Source: Nitrospirota bacterium
GTDB taxonomy: Bacteria > Nitrospirota > JACRHJ01
Reading direction: 5' to 3'
Length of the DNA stretch: 64,000 nucleotides
Assembly (NCBI GenBank): GCA_963733375.1
Contig: CAVTDB010000026.1
Location: 1-64,000 of the forward strand
Both the position numbers and the translations under genes were made by a program. This document shows positions 1-20,157 of this stretch, piece by piece (position 1 is the stretch's first letter; every line of letters starts with the position of its first letter). A model generated the notes under the pieces. The model saw only the letters and a list, made by a program, of their open reading frames with translations, made no database searches and was not told the origin of the DNA.

Positions 1-1395
1 ATGTCGGAGATGTCCAGCAACAGCTTCTGGTGGAGGTCCATCCTGTACGTCACGGGGAAAACCGCCTCGTGTTGGTGGTGGACGCCGCGCCGGAAGTGGT
101 CGTCAGGGTATAGTCCGCATAGGGGCTGAGCGAGAGATTTCTTATCGGGCCGATGTTCGTTAGAAACCGGAACTGGTTGGACGAGTTGCTGGTGCCTGCC
201 GAAGCGGCGGTATGCACGAACGATTCGGACAGGGCCATGTTCAAGAACTGTGCAGGGCGCGCTGATAAAAGCCAGTCCAGATTGTCCTGGGAGTCCGTAG
301 TCGCGGCGGTTCCCGGAGCGCTGCTGGAGTCCATCCTCCTCTCGTACCTGGAGGTGAACGTGAAAATACCGACGTTGTGGTTCAGGTTCATGCCCGCGAG
401 CGTCTGACTGGTGGACGTCGGGCCGAGTCCGGTATTCGCGTCGTGCAGGACGTATGAGCCGTAGACGCGGAGGTATTTCGGAAAGGCGTAGTTGGCCGAC
501 CCGAAATACGTATTTTCATTATCCTGCGTAGAGGGGGAGCCGAGCTGAGAAGTCTGGCCCAGCGTGTGCAGATAACTTCCGGAGAGCTGCGCGCCTTGTA
601 TGGGGGCGTATGACCCGCGCAGTTCCGACGTAGAGGTGTAGGCCTTCGATTGGGTCTGGCCGGCGCTGGCCGTCTCGGTGTAGTTATAGTCTTCGCGCGC
701 GCCAAGGTCAAGCCTGTCGCCTATCCTTTTCGCGGCGGAGGCCTGGGCGGCCACGGTCGTCTGGTCCTGGACAATGCCAGTCATTTTGTCCGTGGTCTGC
801 TGTTCCCCGTAATCGCCGTTAAATGACAATATGCCCAGCTTGTAATCCGCGGCCGCCTGAAAATTCCCTGTCTGAGTGTCGCTGTTTTTAGTACCGCTCG
901 TGGACTGGCTCTGTTGCAGCAGATCATACCTGAGCCTGATTGACGGCAGATTCCCCGGCGTAAACGAGGAGTCCACGAACGCATCGGTTGACTTATTAGC
1001 CTGGGTCTGCGTTTGCGAGTTCACTATGATGTTGTTGGTTGCGTCCACTTCCCTGTAGCCAAACCCTAACTGGGCTGTCTTCGTAGTAATCCTGATATTC
1101 AGGTTAGGATCAAGCTCAAAACTGTTCCCCGTACTGCCGGTGTTGTTTATGACATCAGGCGGAATATCCCCGCAATCGTCAGCTTGGAGCTCGGGGCGGA
1201 CAGCATGTCGAAATCAAAACCGAATTTCTCCTGGGCCGTGCTGGTGGTGACGCCGCCGCTGGTCGCATCGTTCTCCTGATAGGAAAAGTCGGTGCCGTAG
1301 GTTATCGAGGCCGACGCGGCGTTCGGGGCGGCGAACAAGGACAAAAGCGCCGCGGCCCCGGCCAGGTATTTTAACCGGGAACAAAAAAACCGCAT
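1..1395 (-). CDS. Outer-membrane beta-barrel-like protein, 3' end runs off the window; frameshifted
   Basis: ORFs 1147..1443 and 50..1048 join. Signal peptide (LLSLFAAPNAASA) is followed by many amphipathic alternating strands (e.g. FQAAADYKLG, YLRVYGSYVLH) with S/T-rich loops. Confidence 0.65.
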
Positions 1396-4440: not shown

Positions 4441-6691
4441 CTACTGCAGAGGCGTCGCCGTGACCCCCTGGGGCACGCCGGTATCATTGCTCGTTACGGG
4501 CTCGCGGTACCACCTCATCCCGGCTGTGCCGGACACGTCTCCGGCGGCATGGCAGGTCGCGGTGCACCTTGAAGCCGCATACCCGCTCCCGCCGACCCAG
4601 ATGTAGCTGGGGTTGACGGACTTGTTCGTCAGCGCGGAGAAACTCCCCAGGGCGAACGCGTCGTAGACCATCTTGCGCTGATGCGTGCCGTGTGGGTCGT
4701 GGCATGTCTTGCAGGTGATGCGGGAATCGCCGGCCCCGTCGGCGTCGGAGTCGTAAATCAGACTGCCCCCCTGACGCTTGGCGCTCCCGTAGTCGTCCAT
4801 GTGGTTCCAGTGGATATTGGTGGGCACGTCGCCGGTCGAGGTGATGTCCCAGTCCCCGCCGTAGAGCCCCGCCGCCGTCGAGGTATTCCGGAAATCGGTA
4901 CCCCATGTCGGGTAAGGGATCGGCGCGCGGACGTGCTTAGAGGAGACTTTCCCTTCGGGGGGCGTCCCCAGTATCGTCATTTCGCTGTGGCAGGAAAAGC
5001 AGAGGCGTACCTGCGATGACGAATAATTGCCGAGGAGCGGGACGGTGTTGGAGACGGCGCCCATCCTGAAGGCGGGCCGGTAATTATCGGAGGAAGCCTT
5101 GTACGCGAAAGCGGCGTTTCCTATGTGTTGCGTGCTGATGCTGTGGCAAGCGGTGCAGAGAAAACCAAGGGGGACCATCCATGGCCGGTCACGTCGTAGC
5201 CGTAGGTAATGCCGTCACCGACTACGTTCGGCGCGGTCATGTCGGCGCCGCCGGTGCCGGCGGCGGTGTTCACGATTGACAAGCCGTCGTGGCAGCTTTC
5301 GCACCAGGAATTTTCCGACCTTAAAGCCGGCCCCCCCCCCAGTTCGCCTTCGCCGTCGCCGCTCCGCTTCCGTGGCACCTGTTGCACACGGTGGTCGAAG
5401 CGAAGCCCTTCCCGTCTCTGAAGGTGACGACCCCGTCCACGTGCCCGGCCTGGCGGCCAATGGAAGAGTTGTCGGGATGGCAGTCCTCGCAGGCCGCCTT
5501 CGGGCCCCAGGCGGCTGAAAGGTGGACGCTGTGGTTCAGAAGACCGGAGGGGGCTACGGCGTGACAGGTGCCGCAGGCGCCGGTCGAGCTGTCGGTCCAA
5601 ACGGGGGCATTGGATTTGTTCCCGCCGGCGAAATTGCCGTGGCAGTAGGTATTCGAGCAGGACTGGGTCCCGCCCGCGGTATTGCCCGCACTGAAGGTAT
5701 AGCCGCTTATCGGGGAAAACCCGTCGAACCTGCCGCTGGTATAGACGTTGAACGCCGCGAACTTGACATCTATCTTCTTGTTCGTAAGCCCGGTGTCGCT
5801 CATTCCCCCCTTGTGGCATACGCTGCAGGCGTAACCGGCGCCGCCGTTCACGGAATAATTATGGAAGGCGTGCATGCCGGCTGAGGTTTCCCCGGTAGGC
5901 GGATAACCGTTTTTAAGCGAACGGCCCGCTAACGTCTGCTGGCTCGTGGGCGGGTCTCCGTGACAGGAGCCGCAGTTGCCTTTGGCGGAGAAGCCGTAGA
6001 CGTGGTTGTGGCAGAGCGTGCAGTTCGAGCCCGGGTTATGCGACGTGGAGGCGGTATTTTTATGGTAGAGAGTCTGTGTATGGCAGACTTCGCATATGGA
6101 CGTATGGGTTGGATATTCATTGCCCATGGAGTTCGCTCCGGTCATTGCCCTGAAGATTACCATCCTGGCTCCGCTGTTCGGCGTCTTTATCGTGGAGCCG
6201 ATCATAAACCCGTTCTGGCCGGGCATGAACGAGCCGTTCAGTATTTGTGCGGCTCGTGGCACGTGGTGCACTGGACGACAAAGTTCGCGTACTTCGTGGA
6301 ATATCCGGAAGCTTGCATCTCGCGCGTCGAGTGCGTCACCACGGTTTCGGCACCATGGCCCGAAGTCTTCGCCCAGGCCGGGGCCGCGGAGGACGCGCTG
6401 TGGCAGTCGAGGCAGAGATATATTCCGGGATACTCGCCTCCGGCAAGCTGGTCCTGCGACTGCGCCATTGCCTTGGAGAGGTCCCTCCCGGACGCCCGAG
6501 AGTCTCTTGCCGGAGTCGGAATGGGACGAATGGCGCCCAGCGCATACGTCGCTGCCGTAGCTGTAGCCGTTAATTTCCGTAAAGTTATGTTTTGACTCCG
6601 CGCCGCCTATCGCCGCCCATGACATCCCCGTCAGAAGGAGGATGAGCGCCGCCGCCGTCGTCGCCGTCAAAGCATGGATATTGGACTTCAT
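4441..6691 (-). CDS. Multiheme c-type cytochrome C (about 16 heme motifs including CX4CH and CX3CH); frameshifted
   Basis: ATG 6691 (MKSNIHALTA..., signal peptide). Motifs across frames: CAGRH (degenerate), CLDCH, CTTCH, CEVCH, CTLCH, CGSCH, CSVCH, CSNTYCH, CGTCH, CEDCH, CNRCH, CESCH, CTACH, CFSCH, CKTCH, CTATCH. Confidence 0.85.
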
Positions 6692-6708: not shown

Positions 6709-8822
6709 CTAATACCCTACGTGGCAGATTCCACAGAGCGGCGCGAACTCGATTTCCTTGATCGTGCGTATCCGGTACGGCCGGCTGGGCGCTTTCCTCC
6801 GACGGGATTTTATACGCGGCGGCCTTCAGGATCAAAAAGCCTCCCCTGCTGTCGGCCTCATGGACGGTGTGACACGACTCGCAGTTCACGTGCTTATTGA
6901 AAGTCGCGGTAGCGGGAAGGGCGATATCCGTCGGACCGCGGACGTGTCCGGCGTTCATCAACGGATGGGTAAACCCTTCTCCGGCCTCGCCGACGTGCGT
7001 CCTGGGCGTCAGGCCGTGGCTGCCCGTGCAGAGGTATTTATCGGTCCTTTCCTCGCCGCCCCGGTCGCCGCCGATTATATAGTCCTGCACGTCGCTCGTG
7101 AGCCATTCCTTGAAGCTCGCCCGCCCTCGCCAGGAGTCCCGAGACCAGGTCCTGAGTCTGGAATCCCGGCGCAAGCGTCGGGCCCAGATAAGGAGACTGG
7201 TCTGCGTTTCCGGCGGTGATGTTGCCGAGCGCCGAAGTTGTGGCACGAACAGCATTCCATCTCTTTTCCCGATTGCCCCCCGTATTCCGATACCAGCCCG
7301 GACTCCGGCCATTTGCCGATGTGCGACGGTGAGTATTGGTCGTAATATCCCGCCTGTCCATCCGGGGTGACATTCCCGTTCACATCCATGTAATCTATCC
7401 GGGGCGCGGTCGGGTCCCCGAGGAATGGTCCCCTTCCAGTTATCGTCCGTCTGCCAGGTCGGGTTGAATTTGGGATGGCACATCACGCATATGTCGCAGG
7501 CGTCGCCCTTGGTGCAGTCTATTACCAGTATCGGAGTGCAGCTGGCGTTGTGGGCCCTGTGGCAGCTTGAGCAGTAAAGGTTCCCGTTCACGGGCTTGCC
7601 GTAGGTGATGCCTGCGGGGAAAGTGGGCGGTATCTTTATCTGCCTGGTGCTGGCGTGCGGCTCGCCGGAGTTGACAAGGTTGCCTCCGCTGACGTCCCCG
7701 ACCGGGTGGTGCGGGAAGGGGACGGAGTGACACGACTCGCAGAACGTAGGCGAAGCCGTGTCCGGCCTGAGTATCGGGGAGTTCTTTATGGCCCCGTGCG
7801 GTTTGTGGCAGGTCGTGCACAAGACCTCTCCGCCCTTGCCGAAGACCCAGCCGTCCGGCTCTTTTATCTGGACTATCCTGCCCTTTCCGTTGCAGATGTC
7901 GTCGTCGGCGGGATGATAGCTCCTGGGCGCGATCGTCCCGCCGGGGTTGGGATATGGGGGAGAGGCCAGCCCGTCCGCCCTCTGGCCCCTGTGGCAGCCC
8001 TCGCAGAAACGGGTCCGAGTTATCCTTCACAGGGTCAACGGATAAAAGCTTGTAATTCGGGCCGGTCGGCGCTTTCCCGTGTATGCTGTGGCAGGTTACG
8101 CATTCGATGGTCCCGTCGTTGCCCTTGGAAAGATGACCCCCCAGCGTCCAGTGCACTCCGTCCGTATCCTTGCCGTCCACGCTGGGATACGGAAGCGGGA
8201 AGGGCACCTTGAAATCGGGTATGACGAATATCGGCGAAGCACCCTCCGTCTCGTCCTTGGGAAGCTTGTGGACGGGATGAGTCCCTTCGGCGTTGTTTAT
8301 GCCGTAGCCGGAGTTCTCGCGGTTCTTGTGGCACTTTTCGCACAGGTCTACCATATTGACCCGCAGGAAAGGCCTGGTCGTGTCGTCGTGGGGGTTATGG
8401 CAGGTGGTGCACTCGATGTTGTCCTGGGCGCCGTTCGTGTACGGGAGGCCGGAGCCGGATACATCGTCACCGGCCGGCAGGGCCTTGAGGTCCAGGCCGT
8501 GGCTCTTGGGGTTGAAAACGGTCTGGGACGCGTCGACGTTCGGTGAGACGATTGTCACTCCGTCATGGCATGAATAGCATAAAGGCCCCACCCTGCCCCA
8601 TCCCTTGAGAGACGGCGGGGCCGTCGCCCAGAGCGTCGCGCCTTTTGCCCTGTGCGGCACGTGACAGTAGTTGCACACATTTTTACTCTCGGGGTCTATC
8701 CCCGGCATGGAATATTTCTGCGCCGCTATGTCGTGCGGTGAGCCGATTATTCCCGCGAACGTTTTCGTCCCGGAAACCAGGACGCTCAGGACGATTAAGA
8801 GAAGGAATAAAAAAATTTTCAC
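6709..8822 (-). CDS. Multiheme c-type cytochrome B (14 heme motifs); frameshifted
   Basis: GTG start overlaps the upstream TGA; signal peptide. CNYCH, CYSCH, CTTCH, CEKCH, CVTCH, CEGCH, CTTCH, CESCH, CSSCH, CVMCH, CCSCH, CTGSH, CESCH, CGICH. Ends ...APLCGICHVGY* (TAG 6709-6711). Confidence 0.85.
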
Positions 8823-10443
8823 TGCTCGTTAACCTGTCTTATCTGGATGCGGTTCACCAGCTTCTCGACCACATATATCCGCCTCTTACTATCCACGGCT
8901 ATACCGTTCGGGGTGGCTATGTCCAGTTGCTTGCCCCTTTCGTCCCCGAGGACGTAGAGGAACTTGCCCTTCTTGTCGAATACCTGTATCACGTTGGCCA
9001 TCGAGTCCGCGACGTATATATTCCCGGTATCGTCGATGCTCAGGCCCTTAGGCCTCCCGAACATGCCCGCGATGTTGCCGTACCCGCCGAACGTCCAGAG
9101 GAAGCGCCCGTCCTTGTTGAACACCTGGATGCGCGCGTTCAGGCAGTCCGCCACGTAGAAGTTTCCGTCCCTGCCGAACAGGGCGAAGGTGGGCGAGAGG
9201 AACTTCCCGTCCGGTCTCCCCTTTCCGCCGAACGTCTTTATATACTTCCCGTTTGCCGAATAAATCTCTATGCAGTCGTTGAAGTTGTCCACCATGTACA
9301 GGCGGCCGTCCGGCGAGAAAATGCCCTTGATTATGCCGAAGACCTTTACCGGTGTTTTCAGGCCCAGGTCGACAGCAATCGCCTTGCCGTCTTCGAGCAT
9401 TTTCTTATACATGATGAGGCGGCCGTTCTTGTCGAACTTCTGGATCTTGCCGGTGTAAGCGTCCACCGCGAGGACGCTCCCCGCCCCGTCCACGTCAACT
9501 CCCAGTAATTTCTCGAACTTGCCTTCCCTGGCCCCGTAACCGCCAATGGCCTTGAAGAACTTGCCCGACGGCTTGAATATCTGGACCAGGCTGTCGCCGG
9601 TGTCCGATATGTATATATATCCCTCCGGGCCAAGCACAATGTCGGTCGGAGAGAAAAAGCGCTTCTGGTTCCTTGCCTTTCAGGATGTACCCGACGGGCC
9701 TCGTCGACCTGACTACCAGTTTCGGCGGAGGCGGAGGGGCCTTTGGCATTCCGGGACGGCCCGCGCCCTTTTGTTCCTCGGGCAGGACATAGCGGACGGC
9801 CTTGACGGGGCCCAAGTTCGTCTCTTTGAAATCCTTGTCCAGGGCGGTGATGGCGTAATAGTAGGTAGTGTCTTCCTTGACGTCCGTATCGGTAAGGGTG
9901 GTGTCCTGGGTGGAGCCTATAAGCTGGAAACCCTTCTGAGGGTTCAGGCTCCTGTAAACGTTGTACGCGAGGACGCTCGACGAGGCGGAGGGGTTCCAGG
10001 CAAGGCTTATTTTCTCCTTCTCCACCAGCGCGCCGACCCACTCCGGGGGCTTTACCGGCAGGAGCGCCCCGGACACCGGTATCCTTATATAACGCTCTTC
10101 CGAATAGTCCGATTCCTTGTTGCCCGCTCCCACCGACTTAAGGACGTAGTAGTAAGTCTCTCCCGGCAGCACCCCGGGGTCGATATAGGAGATGTCGGTC
10201 GTGACGGCTTTTAACTGATAATCCTTGCCGCTTGTGACGGACCGGTATATCTTGTAGCGGATGGCGCCCTGGAACCGGCATCCATTTAAGCCCCACCTTC
10301 CCCGCGGTAGTGTAGATACCCACCCAGACGGGGGGCTTTTGGGGAACCTGGGCGGAATATACGGTGATAGCCTTGAGGAAAGACAAGAACAAAACTACAG
10401 TCAAGGGTATCAGCTTCTTCCTTGACACATTCTTACTGCTCAT
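8819..10443 (-). CDS. Secreted FN3 + NHL-repeat six-bladed beta-propeller protein (copy 2); frameshifted
   Basis: Joins ORFs 10138..10464, 9495..10172 and 8819..9637. Signal peptide, two FN3 domains (ISLAW...YNVYRS...YYYAITA), NHL repeats (FYVADCLNARIQVF, IYVADSMANVIQVF). Confidence 0.85.
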
Positions 10444-10467
10444 TATTGCAAAAACCTCTCGCAAACC

Positions 10468-12052
10468 TTACAGCGATTTTAAAAGCTGCTCGTTTATTTT
10501 TATCATGTATTTCTCGTGGAGCGACTTATAAAGCGCCTCCACGCGGTCCGAGCGCTTGACCAGCAAGACATTTTTTTTCATCTTGTCTTCAACCTCCGAC
10601 AGCGGCGGCGCGGTCTCGGTTTTCCTTTTGGTCACCTTCACTATTTCATATCCCAGCGGGCCCTTTATAACCCCGCTTACATCGCCGGCCTTAAGGTTCA
10701 GGAGCGTGCTCTTCATAGGCTCCTTCAACTCCTGCGGGTCGACAAAACCCAGTTCGCCTCCCTTGTCTTTCGACGGCTGGTCGGTCGATTTCTCTTTGGC
10801 GACCTGGGCGAAATCTTTTCCGCTTTTCAGCTCGGCCATGGCCGCCTTCGCCTGGTCCTCGGTTGCAAGCACTATGTGGCTCACGTCCACGAGGTTTCTC
10901 TGGCCGTATTCTTGCTTGTATTTTTCATAGGCGTCGTTGGTTTCTTTCTGGCTCGCCTCGTTACCGCCGGTCATTTGTTCCAGATAATATTCCGCCATCA
11001 CCTGTTCCGTCTTCAGTTTTAGCTCCCGCTTGAACTCCGGGTCGTTCTGCAGTCCCCTCGCCCTCGCCTCCTCCGTGTAAAGGATGTCGTTGATCTTGCC
11101 GTTGAGCGCGCCCCTCAGGGTCTGGGGGTTCATCATCTCGTGCGGAAAATGATAGTCTTCTCTTTGCTTTTCAAAAAGGCGCGGGGCTCATGGTGACTTT
11201 CATACCGTCGACGTCAGCGCCTGTATAGATTGTCTCTCCAGCCGAATTTTTTTGCGAATAGACTTTTATTTTGGCCTTGGAGCGGAGCCTGTCCAGTATT
11301 TCGGCCATTTCCTTTTCCAGCTTCTGCTTTTTCAGGCCGTCCACGACGTCTTTTTCACGCGCCTTCCAAAGCTCTTCCGGGTCATCTTTTGACTGCACCT
11401 TCATTACCGTATAGCCGATATCGGTCTTCATCGCCGGGGTAAGCTCGCCCGGCTTCATGCGGTTAATGACCGCTCTTACGCCGACCGTGTAAAGCGAATC
11501 TTCTAAGCTTATGTCCCTTCTGATATCTCCCTTGAACATGGAATATTTTTGCGCGGCGTCTTCGAACCTCGCGCCTTTTTGAATCTCGGCAATCGCCGAT
11601 TGTGCGGCATCCATCGTAGGGGTTATTATCATCATGACGTGTATTACCGGCTTTAAGTCCGTCTGCTTTTTTACGGCGTCTATCTCGCTTTGGTCGATTA
11701 TCGTTTTGTTATAGACGTCCCTGCGCAACAGGTCGGGCAGCCTTTCGTCATAAAATGCTTCCAGCCCCCAACGGACCTGGGTGGCCCCGAGCATCCCTTT
11801 CGCGGTCGCTTCCTTGGCAAGGATCTTCGTGTCGATTATCCTCCAGAGAGTCGACTTCTTATCCTCCAGCTTCGGAGGCGCCTGGCCGTTGACAATCTTA
11901 TAATCCTCAACGGTGATCGGGTCGTTGTCGACCGTGGCGAGCACTCCCTTGCCGAGGTCGTTGCTCCTGACGCAGCCCTGGCTTAAAATGACCAGGGTTA
12001 AAAGCCCCGCCAGACATGCCGGCACCCATTTTTTTTGCCATAGGAAACTCAT
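10468..12052 (-). CDS. PpiC/parvulin-type peptidyl-prolyl isomerase lipoprotein with two SurA/PrsA-like halves (probably one gene with a frameshift near 11165)
   Basis: Lipobox LSQG-C; GVLATVDNDPIT; parvulin motifs FEDAAQKYS and VSHIVLATEDQA...FAQVAKEKSTD..SKDKGGELG. Confidence 0.8.
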
Positions 12053-12253
12053 TCAGTTCAACCCCTCAAACCGTAATCGCGGAAGATACAAAAAGCATAG
12101 TTTAAACCTTGACATAATACAGGAATCGCTGTCTCAAGTCAATTTATAACTGCGCGATTTCCCTCTTTATAACCGCCCTTAACCACTCATCCCTAAGGCT
12201 CACCCATGTATAAGGCGCGCCGCATAAATGGCAGTAATTCATATTTGCGGCGG

Positions 12254-12283
12254 AAAAAAAGGAGGGCCTGGCGGCCCTCCTTT
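12254..12283 (-). terminator. Rho-independent terminator after cytochrome A
   Basis: Minus strand AAAGGAGGGCC-GCCA-GGCCCTCC-TTTTTTT, about 30 nt after the stop codon. Confidence 0.85.
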
Positions 12284-12313
12284 CTTTATGGCTATCCGTT
12301 ATATGGATGCCTA

Positions 12314-15025
12314 TTAATAGTTGTGACACTGCGTGCACAAGCTGCCGTTATCGTCATGGACGACGGCGTTCTCAAGTATCGTCGGCGCGTCTCCCGTCTC
12401 TGAGGTCGCGGTGCGCACGGTGATGTGACTGGAGTTCGAGTAGCTCTGCGGGTTCGCATTGTGCGGCCTGTGGCAGCTGTCGCAGTCCATCTGGTTGGTG
12501 CCGGGGTACGATACCGCGCCCTGGTTCGCCACTTGAGCGTTGCCGTCGGTGCCGTTAGCCGCGCCGCCTGTGCCGGTGGCAGTCGGACGGGTCGTCCCGG
12601 CGTCGGCGTAAGTGCCGTCCACATCATCCGTCACGAGCGACGTTATCGCCCTGCCGACGTCCTTCGCCTTCGTGATGAACCAGCCGGTCATCGGGTGCAT
12701 GCCCGGCGGGGCGATGGTGTTCGTACCAGTTCCGCCCTGGCCGTCGCCTATGACGACACTCGCGTTGACCGGGCCGGGATTGGTGCCCGTACCTAGAATA
12801 TCCTTGTTCTGGTTGTGGCAGCCCACGCAGAACTCGGAGCCGACCGTCCTGGCGTTGGTCTCGGTCAGGCCCAGGCCGGCGCCCTTGGAGGTGTCGGAGC
12901 CTGTGCTGTAGCTGTCATCCCTGTAGTCCTGCAGGAGCAGGTTGTTCTCCCAGCCGGAGGACACGTTCGCCAGTGCCGCCGTCCTGCCTATGTTGCCAAG
13001 GACCGAGTGGCAGGACTCGCAGCCGACAAACTGGATGTTGCCGCCGCTGGCAACATTGGGCGTGAACTCGTGGCCGCCGCTCGTGTAGTCGGCAAAGCCC
13101 GGAAGCACGGTACCGTACTTGGAGTAGTCTCTCCTGTGGCCGGTATGGTCCGGAATCATGGGGCCCGGATTCGAAGCGGGGGTGGTGTTCCAGGCGCTGG
13201 TCTTGACGTGGATGCCGACCGTTCCACCATTGCTGGCGATGGCGCCCATGTAATGCGTTTGCGCGCCAGTCCCTTCGGCGCCGGTCTTCACCGCCGTACC
13301 CAGGCGGTTGATAGGCGCTATGTTAGATCCGGGCTCTATCAAGCTGGTGCCAAGGAAATGGCAGCTCGTGCAGCCGGTGGTACTGCCGCTGTTAGCAAGC
13401 TGGGTGGTAGGAGCGGTAATGGCCTGGTTCCAGGGAACCACGCTAGTCGAGCCGGTGTTGTCTCCGGCCACATTGTAGAACGAGAACCCGTTGTGCGCCT
13501 CGCCGCCGCCGCCCAAGGCACTGACGTGGCAGTCGATGCATTTGACCGTCGAGCCCGCAAGGTTGTCTATGTTGGAGTGGTGCCCGAGCGGTGCTACCGA
13601 CGGGTGGCACGATTTGCACCAGTCGGTCGTGTCGCCGCCCTGCCTTCTCAGCCTGGCGCCGGCTCTGTGGGCGCTGTGGCAGGAGGTGCAGATGATCTGA
13701 TATCCGCTGTACAGGCCTGACGGGGTGACGGTGCCTTGCGGCCATGTTTCAAGAGACCTGTCCACCGTCACACGGGCGCTGCCCGTGAAGTTGTGGCTTG
13801 GCCCAGACCATGACGTGATGAAGGTATTTATGGCATCGGTCGATATCGCGCCGTCTATCGGATGGTCGCCGCCGCTGGTGCCGCCAACAATTGTTCCCCA
13901 CCTGCCGGCCCCGGTGCGACCGTGGCAGGTCTCGCAGAGGTCGGCCCTGCCGTCGGGGGTCGCACCGCCGTTGCCGGTGTTGCTGACAGCCAGGAGCCAT
14001 GTGGCATCGGCGCGGGGCCCGGTGCCGCCGATCAATAGGGTGGTGTCTGTCGCCGGGTTATGCACCGCATGGCAGGTCTGGCAGCCTATGAAGTGCGTTG
14101 CATCCGCTGAACTCCCAGGCGCGGCAATGACGAGGTTGGCCGTGGGTATGGGAGCGCCATTATTGTCCAGGAACTTGCCGCCAAGGTTCCAGCCTCCGAG
14201 GGCGGGGGCGGAGTCGGCTAAAGGCGCTGTCGAGTTAAGGGGGGTCGCCGACAGGCCTTTATAAAAGCCGTTTTCCGAAGCGAGATCGTTGTTGCCGTAT
14301 GCGATATTGACTGGATGGTTATGGTTCCAGCCGCCCGTCGGGGTGCCCGTAACGCCTGCGGGGTCTGCTGCTGTTAGGGTTGCGCCGGTGGTTCCACCGT
14401 CGGTCGTATTGTCAGCGGTGGTGAGACCGGTCGACTCTCTCGTGGTATGACATTCACCGCAGAAATCGGAAATCGGTTCGGGGCTGGCCTTGGTGGCGCG
14501 GAGGAACGGCCTGATGCCGGAGCCGTTTCCAGGTTCGTCCTGGTGCGGGTTGTGGCACGAGGTGCATTCCATTTTGACGTCTGCGGCGGTGTACGGCTTG
14601 CCGCTGATAGCCGCGTCGTTGTTGTCAAGGTTGCCGAGCACGGTCATCGAGCTGCCGTGGGAAGTGTCGGAGAAAGCGCCAGCGTGGTCAGTACCCACCA
14701 CGTAGAACATGTTGTGCGAACCCTGGCTAGCCTTGTTGGTTTTACCGAGGAGCACCCCGGTAGGCAGATGGCACAGGCCGCAAAGGCTGACGCCGATCTG
14801 CCTGGAAGTGGACCAGTTATGAAAAGTTCCGGGAAAGGGAGTAAGCGCCAAACGCCACAAGCGCTTGGAGCCTGCCGCGGCGTGCGGCACGTGACAGGCT
14901 TCGCAGAGGCCGTAGGAGTAGGTTGGGCCGGATAAATCATGCGGCGAATTCTGGATCGCGGCGAAAGCGGGGTAGGCCGTGAGGGCCAGCGCCGCCGCGA
15001 TTAGAACCGTTAATAATTTTTTCAT
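12314..15025 (-). CDS. Multiheme c-type cytochrome A, 903 aa, 14 CXXCH, OmcE-like N-terminal module
   Basis: Intact ORF; GGAGAG RBS before MKKLLTVLIAAALALTAYPAFA signal peptide. CEACH, CGLCH, CTSCH, CGECH, CQTCH, CETCH, CTSCH, CKSCH, CIDCH, CTSCH, CESCH, CVGCH, CDSCH, CTQCH. Confidence 0.95.
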   Translation of the reverse strand: MKKLLTVLIAAALALTAYPAFAAIQNSPHDLSGPTYSYGLCEACHVPHAAAGSKRLWRLALTPFPGTFHNWSTSRQIGVSLCGLCHLPTGVLLGKTNKASQGSHNMFYVVGTDHAGAFSDTSHGSSMTVLGNLDNNDAAISGKPYTAADVKMECTSCHNPHQDEPGNGSGIRPFLRATKASPEPISDFCGECHTTRESTGLTTADNTTDGGTTGATLTAADPAGVTGTPTGGWNHNHPVNIAYGNNDLASENGFYKGLSATPLNSTAPLADSAPALGGWNLGGKFLDNNGAPIPTANLVIAAPGSSADATHFIGCQTCHAVHNPATDTTLLIGGTGPRADATWLLAVSNTGNGGATPDGRADLCETCHGRTGAGRWGTIVGGTSGGDHPIDGAISTDAINTFITSWSGPSHNFTGSARVTVDRSLETWPQGTVTPSGLYSGYQIICTSCHSAHRAGARLRRQGGDTTDWCKSCHPSVAPLGHHSNIDNLAGSTVKCIDCHVSALGGGGEAHNGFSFYNVAGDNTGSTSVVPWNQAITAPTTQLANSGSTTGCTSCHFLGTSLIEPGSNIAPINRLGTAVKTGAEGTGAQTHYMGAIASNGGTVGIHVKTSAWNTTPASNPGPMIPDHTGHRRDYSKYGTVLPGFADYTSGGHEFTPNVASGGNIQFVGCESCHSVLGNIGRTAALANVSSGWENNLLLQDYRDDSYSTGSDTSKGAGLGLTETNARTVGSEFCVGCHNQNKDILGTGTNPGPVNASVVIGDGQGGTGTNTIAPPGMHPMTGWFITKAKDVGRAITSLVTDDVDGTYADAGTTRPTATGTGGAANGTDGNAQVANQGAVSYPGTNQMDCDSCHRPHNANPQSYSNSSHITVRTATSETGDAPTILENAVVHDDNGSLCTQCHNY

Positions 15026-15173
15026 GTAGCTCTCCTGCTGTTGTCGGTTGATTTTTAAATGCATTAAAATTGCACAAAAAACTAAAAACCTATCGCCTTA
15101 CCCCTTATTCACCTCCAATCCTTTTTATGGATATTTTTATTCAAAATCTAAAGTTCCCCTGAAAAAATTTAGA

Positions 15174-16840
15174 CTATTTAACGGACGGCGGCACGATATC
15201 CACCAGCCCATCTTGAAGCTGGAATACCGAAACCCGTCCCATCAGCCCTTCCACTACGTAAAGCCTGTTCTTGCTGTCTATGGCTATGCCGTTCGAAGCC
15301 GATATCAATCGGCCGGTCCTTTTTTTCGTTGCAGAGCGCGTAAAGGAACTTGCCGTCCTGACTGAATGCCTGCACGTTCACCCCGGCTGCGGCGAATACA
15401 TCGCCGTTCCCGTCCACCGCGACCCCGGTGGGCATATACAACTCGCCCGCGCCCTGGCCGTATTTCCCTATGAAGTTCCTGAACTTCCCGTTCCTGTCTA
15501 TGACCTGGTACTTCGCCTGGCCATATCCAAAACGACAAGGTCTCCGTTTTTAAGGATGGCGGAATATCCGGGCGTATTCATCAGGAGCTTGTCGCGCCAT
15601 TTTCTCTTTTCTTCCTCGTTAGGGGGTCCCCGTCCAGTCCGACAGGTGCTTGTTCTCGGAGTTGTAGAGGTGATGCAGTTCCCTTGCTGGTCGCTTATGT
15701 AAACAGTCCCAGTCTTTCGCCACGGAGATCGCGTGGTTCCTGGGGGTAATGCGTTTTTCGGCGTAGTCGTGAATCCTGGAGATATCGGTAGTTATTTTCC
15801 CCAGGGGCCTGCCCGAGAAATCGAATATGTATACGTCCGGGTTCCCGTTATCGCTTACGTAGACAGGGATTTCCCGCCCTGGCCTATCGCAAGTCCGAAC
15901 GCGGGATGCCGACCTTCTTCCCCTCTACACCGTCTTTGCAGAACCTGAACTGGAAGTCGCCGTCTAAGTTATAGACCATGACGCCGCCGTAATCGGCGGA
16001 GGTGACGTATATGTGGCCGACCGCCTCGTCAACCGCGACGTCCACGCACATGCGGGGGGTCGCATTCGGATTCTGTTCGAGGTCGCTTTCCTTCGGTATC
16101 CTGAACAGGAGCTTCGCGGGCCTCATCTTCGTGGGCTGACTTTTCCTCCGCAATTTTTTCCTCGGCCTTGACCTGGGCGGGGGAGGGGATGGAAGCCGAT
16201 ATCTCGTTGGAATATTTCGTCTCGTTGAACTGGCTGTCCACGGTGGTGACGGTGTAGTAGTAGGTCGTGCCCGGCTGTAAGTCGGTATCCTCGAAGGTGT
16301 CCGTGGAAGAAGAACCGATGAGGGCGAAGTCCTTGCCCTTCACCTTGGGCCGGTAAACGTTCACCCCGACCATGTCGGTCCCGACCGCGTTTTCCCACAT
16401 TATTCCGACGGAGTATTTATTGCCGGGGGCTTCCTTCAGGTGGGCTGCGACGAGCTTGGGGATCCTGAGGGGGATAAAGACCTTCTTCACTTCTTTCACG
16501 GTCGTGAGGGCCCATTCGGCGTCTTTGCCGTCTCTTTCCCGCCGACAACAGCCGCTACGGAATAATGAAAGGTCTTGCCGGAGGGGACGTCCTTGTCTAT
16601 GAACCTGTTGACTTTGGGCGCGCCGATAACCTTGGGCTTTGCCTTGCCTTCGGCCCGGTATACCTTGTATTCCGACGCGCCGGGGACGGGCGACCACTGC
16701 ATCAGGACGTTCTTATCGGAGAGCTTCGGATATCCGCCGAGAAACTGGATTTCACCGGCATAAGCGGCCGCGGCGCTCAAAAGCGCCCCGAAAATCGCCG
16801 CAAAAAACATTAACTTGAAGCCGTACGTAGAACTCGTCAT
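15174..16840 (-). CDS. Secreted FN3 + NHL-repeat beta-propeller protein (copy 1); heavily frameshifted
   Basis: Signal peptide; FN3 (MQWSPVPGASEYKVYR, DLQPGTTYYYTVTTVD); NHL-like blades (VDVAVDEAVGHIYVT, YMPTGVAVDGNGDVF, YVVEGLMGRVSVF). Stop TAG at 15174. Confidence 0.75.
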
Positions 16841-16919
16841 TTCCTTACCTCCAGCTTACTTATAAAAAACCCCCACGTGCAGGATTTTTTACTGTTAGTA
16901 CATTCATTAGTCAAAATAA

Positions 16920-17069: not shown

Positions 17070-18985
17070 TTAAACTATCTTAACAACCGGCTGTAAAAAT
17101 ATAATATACACTCATAATAGCCTTGGCCGCATAAGCGCCGCCTATACCAGGTGCGCAATAATCGCGGAGCGTTGCGCATAATGGCTCAGCTATTTCCCGG
17201 CGCCCTGGAGCTGTCTTTGCAGCGCGACCGCCAACCGGTCCAGTTGGTCGTTCTGGAATCCAAGCTTCCTGGAAATCAGGTAAGCCCTGTAAGCTTCCCG
17301 CGGGCGCCCTTCGCTTGCCGCCGTCTGGGACCATACGGCCGCTTCCCAGCCGTAGATATCCAGTATCCCTTCCACCGCGAAGGCTTTATTGGTGCTGTCG
17401 TCCAGCGCCCCCCGCAGCAGTAGCGGTCCCATATCCTCCCGAGCGGTTCCGGATTTCCCGGCGGCGCGATCCAGGCGAGCCCTTGAGGCAACAGGTAATT
17501 CATCGGTATATTCAGCTGAACCGCGGAAGAGAAATCGAAATAGACGGAGGTCTTTTCCTTGAGCCTCCCTACATCCCGTCCACGTTTTTACGGAGGTCCG
17601 TCAGGGGGCGCGCGGAGAAAAGGCGATGCCGTACCTCCTGTACATCTCGGCTTCGCGGTGTCAATAATACCAGCCGTAGGTGAGGATTTCGGAATGGATA
17701 AACAGGACGTCGTCTCTGGTATCTTGACGCCCTGCCTGTACCAGACAGGGAAGACGCCGTTGTCGCCCCATGAGAATATGACGCTGAAAGGCTTCACCGA
17801 CTTCAGTTCGTTCCCCGCCGTGTCATACGCGAAGAAGTTATTCGAGTTGTCCATCCCTGCGCAATTGACAGCAAGAGAGGCCGCGGGCAGCACGAAGCAA
17901 AGACGCGGCGACGGCAGGTATGGCGGGCGATTTTTTGCAAGCTTTTCCCAGAGTAGCCGGACGGCGGCGGCCAGCGCGGGTATCAGGAAAATAAAGACCG
18001 GGTTATAATATTTTCCCAGGAGTCCCATATTTTTTATCGCGACGTCTGCCCAGGGTCAGAAACGTCATGCAGAAATAATACGATACCCCGGCGAACACCA
18101 TGAACAAAAGCCAGCGCCTGCCCCGGAGCCAGTACATGAGCGCCGCCGACATCAACACGCCGCCGCCCCCGCGGCCATCCTGGCCCCGGTAAGAAAATGA
18201 TGAGATGTTGCCAAGGAACAACCTGAACATCGCGCCGTACTTTTCCACTTCATGACCCATATGATATTTTCGAAGGTATCAGGCCGGCCCAGGTCGATAA
18301 GCGGCCTTGCATGTCCGCGGAGCGGCAGGTACAGGACGGAAACCAGGCCAGGACGAAGAGCCCGGCCGAACGATGAAGACGGGTGCGCGCCTGCCTCTCG
18401 CGTGGGACAGGTAGTAGACCGCAAATGCCGGGATTATGAAATAGGTTGTCTCATGGCAGACAAACGACAGGCCCATGAAAAAGGCGGACAGGTGAAGCCA
18501 TCTGACGTCCCGCGACTTCTCGAACCTTAACAGGGAGTAAGCGGTTACGGCCAGGAGGAAGATCGACAGGGTGCGGACGCGGTGATGACCGAGACGCCCC
18601 AGAAATAGCCGTAGAAGGCAAACGACAGCGCGCTCGCGGCGGCAAGCGCCCCGGCAAAGGGCATATCCTGGAGGGCGTCTTTGACCATCAGGAATAGGAC
18701 GTAAACGGAGCAGGCGGCAAAGAAGGCGGACATGACGTTAAGCCGGTAGGCGACGCTCCCCAGGGGCAGGAAGGTGAACGCCTTTCCCAGGATGCAGAAC
18801 AGCGGATATCCGGGGGGGTGCGGTATTCCCAACGACCAGGCGGCGGTAGCCAGCTCTCCGCTGTCCCAGAAGGTTATCAACGGCGCAAGCGTCAGCAGAT
18901 AAACCGTGAACGACCCGAAAAAAACGGCCGGGCCGAGAGACGTCCTCGCCAATAATCTCAACTTGCTATTTTCCTCTGGAGCCAT
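17070..18985 (-). CDS. DUF2723 / TMEM260-like membrane glycosyltransferase; frameshifted, 3' end approximate
   Basis: YLLTLAP.ITFWDSGEL..AAWSLGIPHPPGYPL signature; later YLPLR...P.IDLG.P and FSWGDNGVFPVWY segments. Confidence 0.8.
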
Positions 18986-18989
18986 TTCT

Positions 18990-20010
18990 TTACTTGGCCC
19001 CTACCAGGTCGCGAGGGCCTCCGCGGCCTCTGTAATGCTCCGCCGCCTTGTCGAAAGTCCCCTTCTTTTCGTAAGCCTTGCCCAATTCGAAGTTCGCGCG
19101 CGCGGGTCTTGGGTTATCCTTGACGGACTCGTTTAACATTTCAAGACCCTTGTCCACCTGTCCCAGCGCGACCATGCACGCCCCAAGCCCCGTCTTGGCG
19201 TCACTGGATTTTGGATTCTGCTGGACGGCCGTATTAAACTGTTCGAGAGCCTTTGCCGTATCGCCATTGTCAAGGAGGGCGTAGCCGTATTTTATATGGG
19301 CGGCGGTCAACTCCGGCGCGGCTTCCACCGCCTGTGCAAGCTCCTCGCAGGCCTTACCGGGCATTTTACGCTCCAGCAGTGGCCCGCCAGCATCAGGTGC
19401 CTTTCGGCTATCGGCCCTGCCCGGAGAGGCTTTTTCAATCCCCTTCGGGTTAAGCTCGCTCTCAAGCTGCTCCCTCGTTATCTCGCCCAGCGCGAGCAGC
19501 ACGTTGCCTTCCACCGCATCCTGATACTTCCAGTCGTGCGAAGGCACCTGCACGGCCAGTTTCCCGTGCCTTGCCGACTACGCCGGTGGTGGGATAAAGG
19601 TACGCGCCCCATGCGCCGTAGACCTTGCGGCCGTCGTCGTATAAAATCGGGAACGTTATCTTTTCCTGCAGGGCCAGTCCCGCGATTTTGTCCCTCTCGT
19701 GCGCCTCCGAAACTATCGCTAAAAAAACGACGCCTTTCGGCGAGAGCTTGGGATATAACTTCTGGGCTGCCCTGAGCGCGAGTATGGAAATAGTGCTGCC
19801 TGCTCGGCCTGACGAAGATTACCACAACCACCTTCCCGGCGAGGCTTGATAGGGCGTAGGCTTTCCCGGAGTCGTCGGTCAGGGTAAAATCAGGGGCGTC
19901 TGGCCTTCCGCCACGTTTCTAAATGCCATCGCGGCATGGCAATGTCCCGCGAGCATCGCCCCTGCGACCAGGAAGGGAATGAATACTTTTAACAGGCGCT
20001 CAGCGTACAC
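18990..20010 (-). CDS. Secreted redoxin-like fold + TPR protein; frameshifted
   Basis: GGAG RBS and GTG 20010; signal peptide; AFRNVAEGQTP.FTL.D..GK...KVVVVIF (redoxin-like, no CxxC visible); C-terminal TPR helices (AHIKYGYALL, ANFELGKAYEKKG). Confidence 0.6.
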
Positions 20011-20126
20011 GGCAAACTCCTCATTAAGAATGGTTTTTCCCACAACACGGTAATTTACCACTCCGTCCCTTCTTTGTCCATAATTTTCTTGGTTATTCCT
20101 TGCGTGGAGGGGCTTTCTGGACAACA

Positions 20127-20157
20127 AAAAAAACCCGCCCTGAACAGGGCGGGTTTT
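20127..20157 (-). terminator. Rho-independent terminator after the rhodanese gene (bidirectional shape)
   Basis: AAAAAAACCCGCCCTG-AA-CAGGGCGGGTTTT. Confidence 0.85.

Follow-up and report, generated by a model that had tools for sequence, protein, structure and literature searches.

A three-module, 14-heme relative of OmcE from uncultured Nitrospirota as a candidate head-to-tail nanowire subunit

The DNA considered here, termed the window, spans 64,000 nucleotides (nt) of a Nitrospirota bacterium (assembly GCA_963733375.1, contig CAVTDB010000026.1, positions 1–64,000), and its minus strand encodes a protein, cytA, that is firmly identified by its sequence as a secreted 14-heme cytochrome of the OmcE superfamily, composed of three OmcE-like modules. 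From the pattern of conserved histidines in this family, we propose that cytA subunits join head to tail, with His48 of one subunit completing heme 13 of its neighbor, to form a nanowire with a 14-heme repeat; we place the probability of this reading at roughly 45%. cytA may thereby exceed in size every building block so far put forward for a cytochrome nanowire, the polymer being itself a proposal, and it offers a good experimental lead for a nanowire subunit.

The cytA coding sequence (12314..15025, stop codon included) was defined from its open reading frame (ORF) and translation: it runs from an ATG at 15025 to a stop at 12316–12314, a strand assignment that an earlier note on this DNA had not given, and encodes 903 residues. 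That note had counted 14 hemes, and the translation contains exactly 14 CxxCH motifs, starting at C41, 82, 154, 189, 315, 364, 446, 470, 496, 552, 669, 733, 848, and 897, which between them account for all 28 cysteines of the protein and leave no other. A Sec signal peptide is predicted at residues 1–23 (14957..15025, minus strand; MKKLLTVLIAAALALTAYPAFA followed by A) on the basis of the translation and of an N-terminus shared among homologues; it is devoid of a lipobox, and predicted cleavage after AFA at residue 23 yields a mature protein beginning AIQNSPHDLS. The last heme lies at the extreme C-terminus, as had been remarked, its motif ending two residues short of the stop codon (CTQCHNY). 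Pfam and NCBIfam assign the protein only generic multiheme names (Paired_CXXCH_1, Cytochrome_C7, and Cytochrom_c3_2), and the general Cytochrome_C7 match extends over just residues 149–200. cytA was not matched by TIGR04257, the model for repeated c7 triheme “nanowire” cytochromes, nor by PF22113 (MtrC/MtrF domain II/IV) or an OmcA/MtrC NCBIfam model at E 0.01 or better; PF22113 does appear in the precomputed listing for many cytA homologues, and is present too in the orthologue of a neighboring cytochrome, cytC.

Kinship with OmcE emerges from the family rather than from the single sequence. A phmmer search of the PDB with cytA alone returned no match at E 10 or better, whereas a profile built from A1, an 82-row alignment of family members with 14 CxxCH motifs, detects OmcE readily: it matches the Geobacter sulfurreducens protein (7tfs) at E 3.9e-20, full-length on hemes 1–4 (profile 9–169, chain 9–231), and the D. 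soudanensis protein (9yuq; identity confirmed) at E 6.2e-21, in the latter case with the N-terminal part aligned to heme 1 and residues 93–217 to hemes 6–8. An OmcE pattern at hemes 1–4, which the earlier note had suggested, is hereby upheld, and the motifs it quoted are all present (SPHDLS, CEACHVPH, LCGLCH, ECTSCHNPH, PFLR, NHPV, DHPI, and MHPM). Residues 24–200 contain four CxxCH motifs and four distal histidines in the fixed order of OmcE, and the invariant columns of A3, an alignment of 55 OmcE-type units, include H29, C41, C44, H45, H48, C82, C85, H86, H123, C154, C157, H158, H161, C189, C192, and H193. OmcE protomers are of ∼200–230 residues and four hemes; because cytA has 903 residues and 14 CxxCH motifs, we consider it not an OmcE orthologue but a multi-module relative.

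Profile–profile comparison accounts for the additional hemes. In hhalign, the first module aligns with a second (residues 24–200 onto 228–480; hemes 1–4 onto 5–8) with a probability of 97.7 and E 1.6e-12, and with a third (hemes 1–4 onto 11–14) with a probability of 97.7 and E 1.5e-12. By these alignments, the architecture of cytA is 4+4+2+4—an OmcE-like tetraheme module three times over, the last of them preceded by a diheme insert (hemes 9–10)—and its extension to 14 hemes arises by internal repetition of the OmcE unit. The “five more heme pairs” previously described after heme 4 accordingly give way to a tetraheme module, a diheme insert, and a further tetraheme module. In minus-strand coordinates, module 1 (14426..14956; residues 24–200, hemes 1–4) carries distal His29, His48, His123, and His161; it is followed by a Thr/Gly/Ala-rich linker (14345..14425; residues 201–227), which is not found in the paralogue cytB (alignment A2) and is modeled with a predicted local distance difference test score (pLDDT) below 50. 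Module 2 (13586..14344; residues 228–480, hemes 5–8) carries His237, His322, His388, and His453; the diheme insert (13346..13585; residues 481–560, hemes 9–10), which falls outside the repeats resembling module 1, has invariant His482, His483, and His511 in the columns of A1; and module 3 (12317..13273; residues 585–903, hemes 11–14) has three conserved distal histidines, at 591, 777, and 855. A link to OmcS (6ef8) is suggestive: two ordered stretches of that protein align with the A1 profile at E 3.5e-12, no better than generic multiheme proteins, with OmcS residues 6–150 (its hemes 1–3) falling on cytA hemes 5–7 and residues 218–406 (its hemes 4–6) on cytA hemes 12–14, up to the C-terminal end.

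The 14-heme form is a property of the family. Among the 98 proteins recovered by a word-indexed search, including the query’s own record, 82 have exactly 14 CxxCH motifs, and the heme number is therefore not a chance count; these 82 span 652–975 residues, and 51 of them end two residues past the last CxxCH. The remainder have 12 hemes (seven proteins), 13 (six), 10 (two), or 27 (one), several without an N-terminal signal peptide. An exhaustive search gave 113 matches at E 0.001 or better, 18 of which are stand-alone tetraheme proteins of 185–232 residues that match cytA residues 1–194 directly. Genome contigs, when scanned, yielded mostly 4-heme and 11-heme proteins, with five complete 14-heme ORFs returned. 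The 11-heme proteins appear to constitute a separate and widespread architecture: 37 of 73 complete ORFs with an OmcE-like N-terminus are of this kind, at ∼500–860 residues and with an end that is not CxxCH, and they occur in Bacteroidota, Planctomycetota, Calditrichota, and other groups (loci L009, L012, L014–L018, and others). In Nitrospirota, cytA was detected at E 1e-20 or better in nine of the 401 genomes searched, its own included; all nine belong to one family, in which eight of the 11 other genomes carry the gene.

Within the A1 alignment, all 14 CxxCH motifs are invariant, and 13 distal histidines (H29, 123, 161, 237, 322, 388, 453, 482, 483, 511, 591, 777, and 855) are retained in at least 79 of the 82 sequences. 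The HP-hydrophobic motifs to which attention had been drawn are among them: NHPV, DHPI, and MHPM correspond to the conserved distal H237, H388, and H777. His48 is retained in 63 of 82. There are, then, 14 candidate distal ligands for 14 hemes, and all 14 hemes are therefore probably bis-histidine ligated. The CHxxH form of the motif, in which a second histidine follows the heme-binding one, is present in all 82 sequences at hemes 3, 5, 7, and 13, in 63 at heme 1, and in none at heme 11.

The distribution of these ligands suggests head-to-tail joining. Module 1 has four distal histidines for four hemes and module 2 likewise, the insert has three for two hemes, and module 3 has three for four. 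According to published structural accounts, a histidine of the neighboring subunit completes one heme per subunit in both OmcS and OmcE. Of the six hemes of OmcS it is heme 5, which in the A1 profile alignment falls on cytA heme 13. Were the first-heme CxxCHxxH histidine of each module to ligate the open heme of the preceding unit, module 1 would draw on His322 and module 2 on one histidine of the insert's three, and module 3 need not donate, its own first-heme CHxxH histidine having been lost. At the N-terminal end, this would leave His48 (codon 14882..14884, minus strand; the second histidine of CEACHVPH) unpaired; at the C-terminal end, it would leave a module 3 heme, heme 13 by homology, short of its distal histidine. 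A free histidine at one end and an open heme at the other are what head-to-tail joining calls for, and subunits could accordingly associate through His48 and the heme 13 of a neighbor, as in OmcE and OmcS, to generate a continuous heme chain. The designation of His48 as the trans ligand draws on the histidine counts, on analogy with OmcS and OmcE, and on the pattern of its loss within the family.

That pattern offers a second line of evidence. The 19 sequences of 82 that lack His48 all fall inside a single 25-row clade of the family tree (FastTree, support 100), and this clade has an extra histidine (VH[NY]P) within module 3, ahead of the H777 motif; 18 of the 19 have this extra histidine, and a six-row sister group within the clade retains both His48 and the extra histidine. 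A lineage that has lost the putative donor while holding a substitute ligand in the acceptor module is consistent with the head-to-tail model. Most of the clade (e.g., P0056, P0060, and P0044) additionally has a conserved pair of cysteines, the first following residue 802 and the second within a “DTxxQC” extension of the C-terminus. This pair looks like a tether for the extension, and the clade itself resembles a self-satisfied, capped 14-heme form.

The same ligands can be accommodated within one chain. cytA may be a wire that does not polymerize: a single 14-heme protein, rod-shaped or folded, that resides in the periplasm or on the cell surface, binds His48 to a heme of the same polypeptide, and hands electrons between the cytB, cytC, decaheme, and barrel products of its gene cluster and minerals or partners, in the manner of the Mtr/Pcc surface cytochromes. 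We regard this alternative as possible, if somewhat doubtful. Fourteen conserved distal histidines could satisfy 14 hemes in a single polypeptide; most multiheme cytochromes of NHL/porin clusters are not known to polymerize; and D. ferrophilus is reported to have a 14-heme outer-membrane cytochrome, encoded in an NHL cluster, as part of an outer-membrane complex. Moreover, OmcE-like N-terminal modules head many architectures other than OmcE itself, as the 11-heme ORFs illustrate, and no fused, longer form (1582–4515 residues) was found at E 1e-5 or better, a weak indication in the same direction. What speaks for a joint between chains is that module 3 conserves three distal histidines for four hemes, while the sole surplus histidine resides in module 1, at the opposite end; that the N- and C-terminal ends of cytA keep the form seen in OmcE and OmcS; and that a transcription unit of its own, bounded by a conserved terminator, fits a major structural product.

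Docking bears on the same question. When module 3 (residues 575–903) was docked with module 1 (residues 24–205) and four hemes, the result scored 0.51 (from 0.58, 0.50, and 0.51), and the best of three controls scored 0.00; the runs shared at least 28% of contacts, and the partner pLDDT was at least 51. For calibration, 116 of the 157 solved complexes and two of the 215 mismatched pairs attained that mark; those attaining it with a score of 0.60 or under were only 18 of the 157 complexes, together with both of the mismatches that passed. By this measure the models weakly support a joint between module 3 and module 1. AlphaFold2 models of the protein were less useful: module 1 alone, modeled from a 55-row alignment, gave a pLDDT of 46.7 and a predicted template modeling score of 0.31, and was discarded as unusable for fold search. 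Coil makes up ∼80% of these proteins, and a pair of true OmcE structures is itself 5.2 Å apart over all atoms; a nonsignificant fold match therefore counts neither for nor against kinship.

Several considerations nonetheless weigh against the head-to-tail proposal. The AlphaFold2 models are poor (pLDDT 60.8 and 46.7), and their fold matches to OmcE are not significant. The docking pose may be equivalent to a copy of the internal joint between modules 1 and 2 rather than a head-to-tail contact, no contacts being given, and the result may reflect memory of the solved OmcS and OmcE filaments. On the tree, the pattern of His48 and the extra module 3 histidine comes down to a single gain and a single loss, and it carries no statistical weight. 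A folded-back monomer may bring His48 to module 3 of its own chain. Support from OmcS is tempered by PDB chain 6r2q_A, which scores 8e-15 against 3.5e-12 for OmcS; with unrelated multiheme proteins of this sort matching about as well, the OmcS link is only suggestive. (The molecule name attached to this chain is “Cystathionine beta-synthase,” while the aligned sequence is that of a multiheme cytochrome, and the label seems wrong; 6R2Q is cited in the literature as the Mtr complex.) The accessory genes around cytA are frame-broken in this assembly. Finally, the histidine that crosses the OmcE and OmcS interfaces is presumed here to be that of a CxxCHxxH motif; the trans donor of OmcS would be His16, the second histidine of the first CxxCHxxH.

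The DNA on either side of cytA speaks to how the protein might be made. Starting 30 nt past the stop codon is a hairpin, read as an intrinsic terminator or 3′ stem–loop (12254..12283, minus strand), consisting of AAAGGAGGGCC-GCCA-GGCCCTCCTTT and a run of T, with an 11-bp stem and a 4-nt loop. The 64-nt stretch that contains it folds at −34.2 kcal/mol (z −6.4), and none of 200 shuffled sequences fold as well. The window and all five relatives examined (L098–L102) share exactly the same stem at the nucleotide level, although the loops differ (GCCA, GCAT, GCGA, and GAAA). This identity spans six genomes whose cytA proteins are themselves only ∼40–66% identical. Such conservation exceeds the needs of termination alone, and the element may be an mRNA-stabilizing 3′ end or a binding site. 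A scan for terminator-like sites between 4000 and 20000 found 18 against 19.5 expected, which is the chance level, and missed the cytA hairpin, itself confirmed by folding. Upstream, cytA is preceded by a 150-nt spacer (15026..15175, minus strand) whose G+C fraction, 0.33, is below those of the gene (0.63) and of the window as a whole (0.57); a ribosome-binding site, AGGAGA, lies within it at 15031–15036. Spacers of 127–172 nt occupy this position in four relatives, and the G+C fraction is 0.33–0.36 in the window and three of them and 0.49 in the other; elsewhere in the cluster, genes overlap or are closely packed. The best sigma-70-like site of the region (12114..12142, minus strand; TTGACT-17-TATTAT, 10 of 12 positions, a consensus match only) lies between the terminator and the downstream peptidyl-prolyl isomerase (PPIase) gene; none was found on the minus strand of the cytA spacer.

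The long AT-rich leader and strong terminator reported previously are both real, and the signs of a major subunit that had been read into them stand as far as the DNA is concerned, where they are conserved: an identical stem in five of five relatives, AT-rich spacers in most, and a promoter-like site after the terminator. cytA would be transcribed as its own unit, stopped or stabilized by the conserved hairpin, and such separation could allow its product to outnumber those of the accessory genes. On these sequence features, cytA can be firmly predicted to be the separately transcribed member of its conserved cluster. The protein is among the less conserved of the cluster: it is 60% identical to that of the closest relative, where the PPIase reaches 83% and the second NHL protein 79–91%, and it has Ser/Thr/Gly-rich loops that cytB does not, with a GT39-like gene nearby. 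The divergence, the loops, and this neighbor fit an abundant, exposed, and possibly glycosylated product.

The surrounding cluster, which lies entirely on the minus strand, is shared with five relatives in a common order: AhpC/TSA-TPR, GT39/TMEM260-like, NHL 1, cytA, PPIase, NHL 2, cytB, and cytC. In the window, the GT39/TMEM260-like O-mannosyltransferase and AhpC/TSA-TPR genes occupy 17193..20130, with frame changes, and the first fn3-NHL beta-propeller gene, broken into several frames, 15189..16873 (Pfam fn3; located by tblastn with an intact 576-residue orthologue, on which Pfam NHL was found). Beyond cytA lie a PPIC-type PPIase (10471..12052; two ORFs here, ∼527 residues in relatives), the second fn3-NHL beta-propeller gene (8822..10464; frame changes), cytB (6712..8822; frame changes), a compact 14-heme paralogue of cytA of ∼705 residues in relatives, and cytC (4444..6640; frame changes), a third 14-heme cytochrome whose orthologue has an MtrC/MtrF-like domain. 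In the two of five relatives with a longer stretch, the order continues with a protein of ∼900–1100 residues and one of ∼611–663 residues, neither of them matched by Pfam, and then with a CsgG-like lipoprotein, a third NHL lipoprotein, and a decaheme. The window, and with it the contig, starts within the orthologue of the 611-residue protein (50..1311; 55% identity to L103:4895-6730), a candidate outer-membrane beta-barrel: the nearest named Atlas clusters of the 611-residue protein are outer-membrane beta-barrel/porin at 0.93, which is a lead only. The small lipoprotein of 261–272 residues (L103:6796-7614 and L104:7766-8551) lies between the candidate barrel and the third NHL lipoprotein, after which comes the decaheme; a CsgG-type secretion role for the 272-residue form was dropped, the match being weak (E 4.8e-7) and LpoB and GNA1162-like models matching too. 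In other phyla, the 14-heme gene adjoins a PPIase (L001, L002, and L004) or NHL genes (L003 and L005) at all five loci examined.

The cluster fits the recipe of the published omcE and osc loci; it is intact in relatives and frame-broken in the window, and its barrel is at present a lead. Compared with their intact orthologues, the AhpC-TPR, GT39, NHL 1, PPIase, NHL 2, cytB, cytC, large no-Pfam, and barrel genes are each frame-shifted one to several times, some of the breaks falling at homopolymer runs such as a C10 run near 5330; the 2.7-kb cytA, which has few such runs, shows no frame change against its orthologues. The breaks are likely to be assembly indels in a genome of 26 contigs that is 81% complete; the alternative is real decay. 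Of the products of the accessory genes, the PPIase could fold cytA, the NHL propellers and candidate barrel could export or anchor it, the GT39-like enzyme could glycosylate its Ser/Thr/Gly-rich loops, and cytB, cytC, and the decaheme could feed it electrons.

The presence of cytB introduces another possible partner for His48. cytA and cytB, perhaps with cytC, could form a defined hetero-oligomer in which His48 of one completes the open heme of the other, giving a conduit of 28 or 42 hemes that the barrel would anchor. cytB retains all 14 CxxCH motifs and the same distal histidines, the His48 equivalent included, and is always three genes downstream of cytA; it is also the more compact protein, at ∼50 residues per heme and 13–15% Ser plus Thr, against 53–70 residues per heme and 16–20% for cytA, a pairing that would suit an inner and an outer partner. 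We nevertheless judge this arrangement improbable: donor histidine and acceptor module are both in cytA, nothing in the sequence limits cytA to a single joint, and its separate, terminator-bounded unit suggests unequal stoichiometry.

The head-to-tail proposal can be extended, more tentatively, to a picture of cytA as the protomer of a new class of nanowire, with a repeat about twice the size of the largest known protomer (eight hemes), a sugar coat added by GT39, a base formed by cytB in the outer-membrane barrel, and a self-capped, non-polymerizing form in the sister clade that, having acquired an internal histidine and a disulfide-tethered C-terminal tail, went on to lose His48; this fuller account we hold to be possible, at clearly less than even odds. 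If true, the family records joints between subunits becoming joints within a chain and back again, and ties OmcE and OmcS to one modular ancestor; nanowire-type electron transfer would likewise extend to an uncultured Nitrospirota family. The origin of the head-to-tail joint, its capping, and nanowire export are questions raised in the literature, and the family presents a natural experiment with which to approach them: the joint would occur twice within the chain (between modules 1 and 2, and between module 2 and the insert) and probably once between chains, and the sister clade looks self-satisfied. Even as a monomer, cytA would be a well-defined wire of 14 hemes, encoded in a conserved cluster for electron export.

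Set beside known systems, cytA is closest to OmcE (7TFS and 9YUQ). Residues 24–200 share its four CxxCH motifs and four distal histidines in the same order; an xxHDLS motif stands just after the signal peptide, PFLR lies ahead of the last heme of module 1, and the chain ends right after the last CxxCH. The published omcE cluster comprises the subunit gene, further multiheme cytochromes, two beta-propellers, a large beta-barrel and, often, GT39 and TPR genes; the cytA cluster likewise has multiheme cytochromes, two beta-propellers, a candidate barrel, a GT39-like enzyme, and TPR proteins. The differences are of scale and arrangement: 903 residues and 14 hemes per chain against ∼200–230 and four, the unit present three times with a diheme insert and with the third unit devoid of the first-heme CHxxH histidine, and a cluster that includes a PPIase, as does the companion operon of omcS (osc). 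With OmcS (6EF8) and osc, for which roles in folding, secretion, and morphology are proposed, cytA has in common the paralogous cytochromes that adjoin the principal one and nearby genes for secretion proteins and a folding factor; OmcS has six hemes where cytA has 14. Among solved nanowire subunits, four hemes are reported for OmcE, six for OmcS, and eight for OmcZ.

Two further comparisons help to delimit what is new. In D. ferrophilus IS5, PMC5815863 reports outer-membrane cytochromes with 12 heme sites (DFE_449) and 14 (DFE_461), in clusters that have NHL beta-propeller genes, as the cytA cluster does; DFE_461 is described there as part of an outer-membrane complex and not as a filament subunit. 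The five-heme OmcE-like proteins of a recent report (mBio 2026, PMC13712944), proposed there as a new nanowire family, are like cytA relatives of OmcE with extra CxxCH motifs, from uncultured bacteria of several phyla; they have the length of OmcE and one exposed extra heme, whereas cytA repeats whole modules in one chain. No report of a 14-heme OmcE-type protomer was found in literature titles and abstracts, a point to which the lists of homologues in PMC13712944 may be relevant. The OmcE-type cytochrome is in essence a kind already known; the three-module protomer, and the histidine logic that accompanies it, are new.

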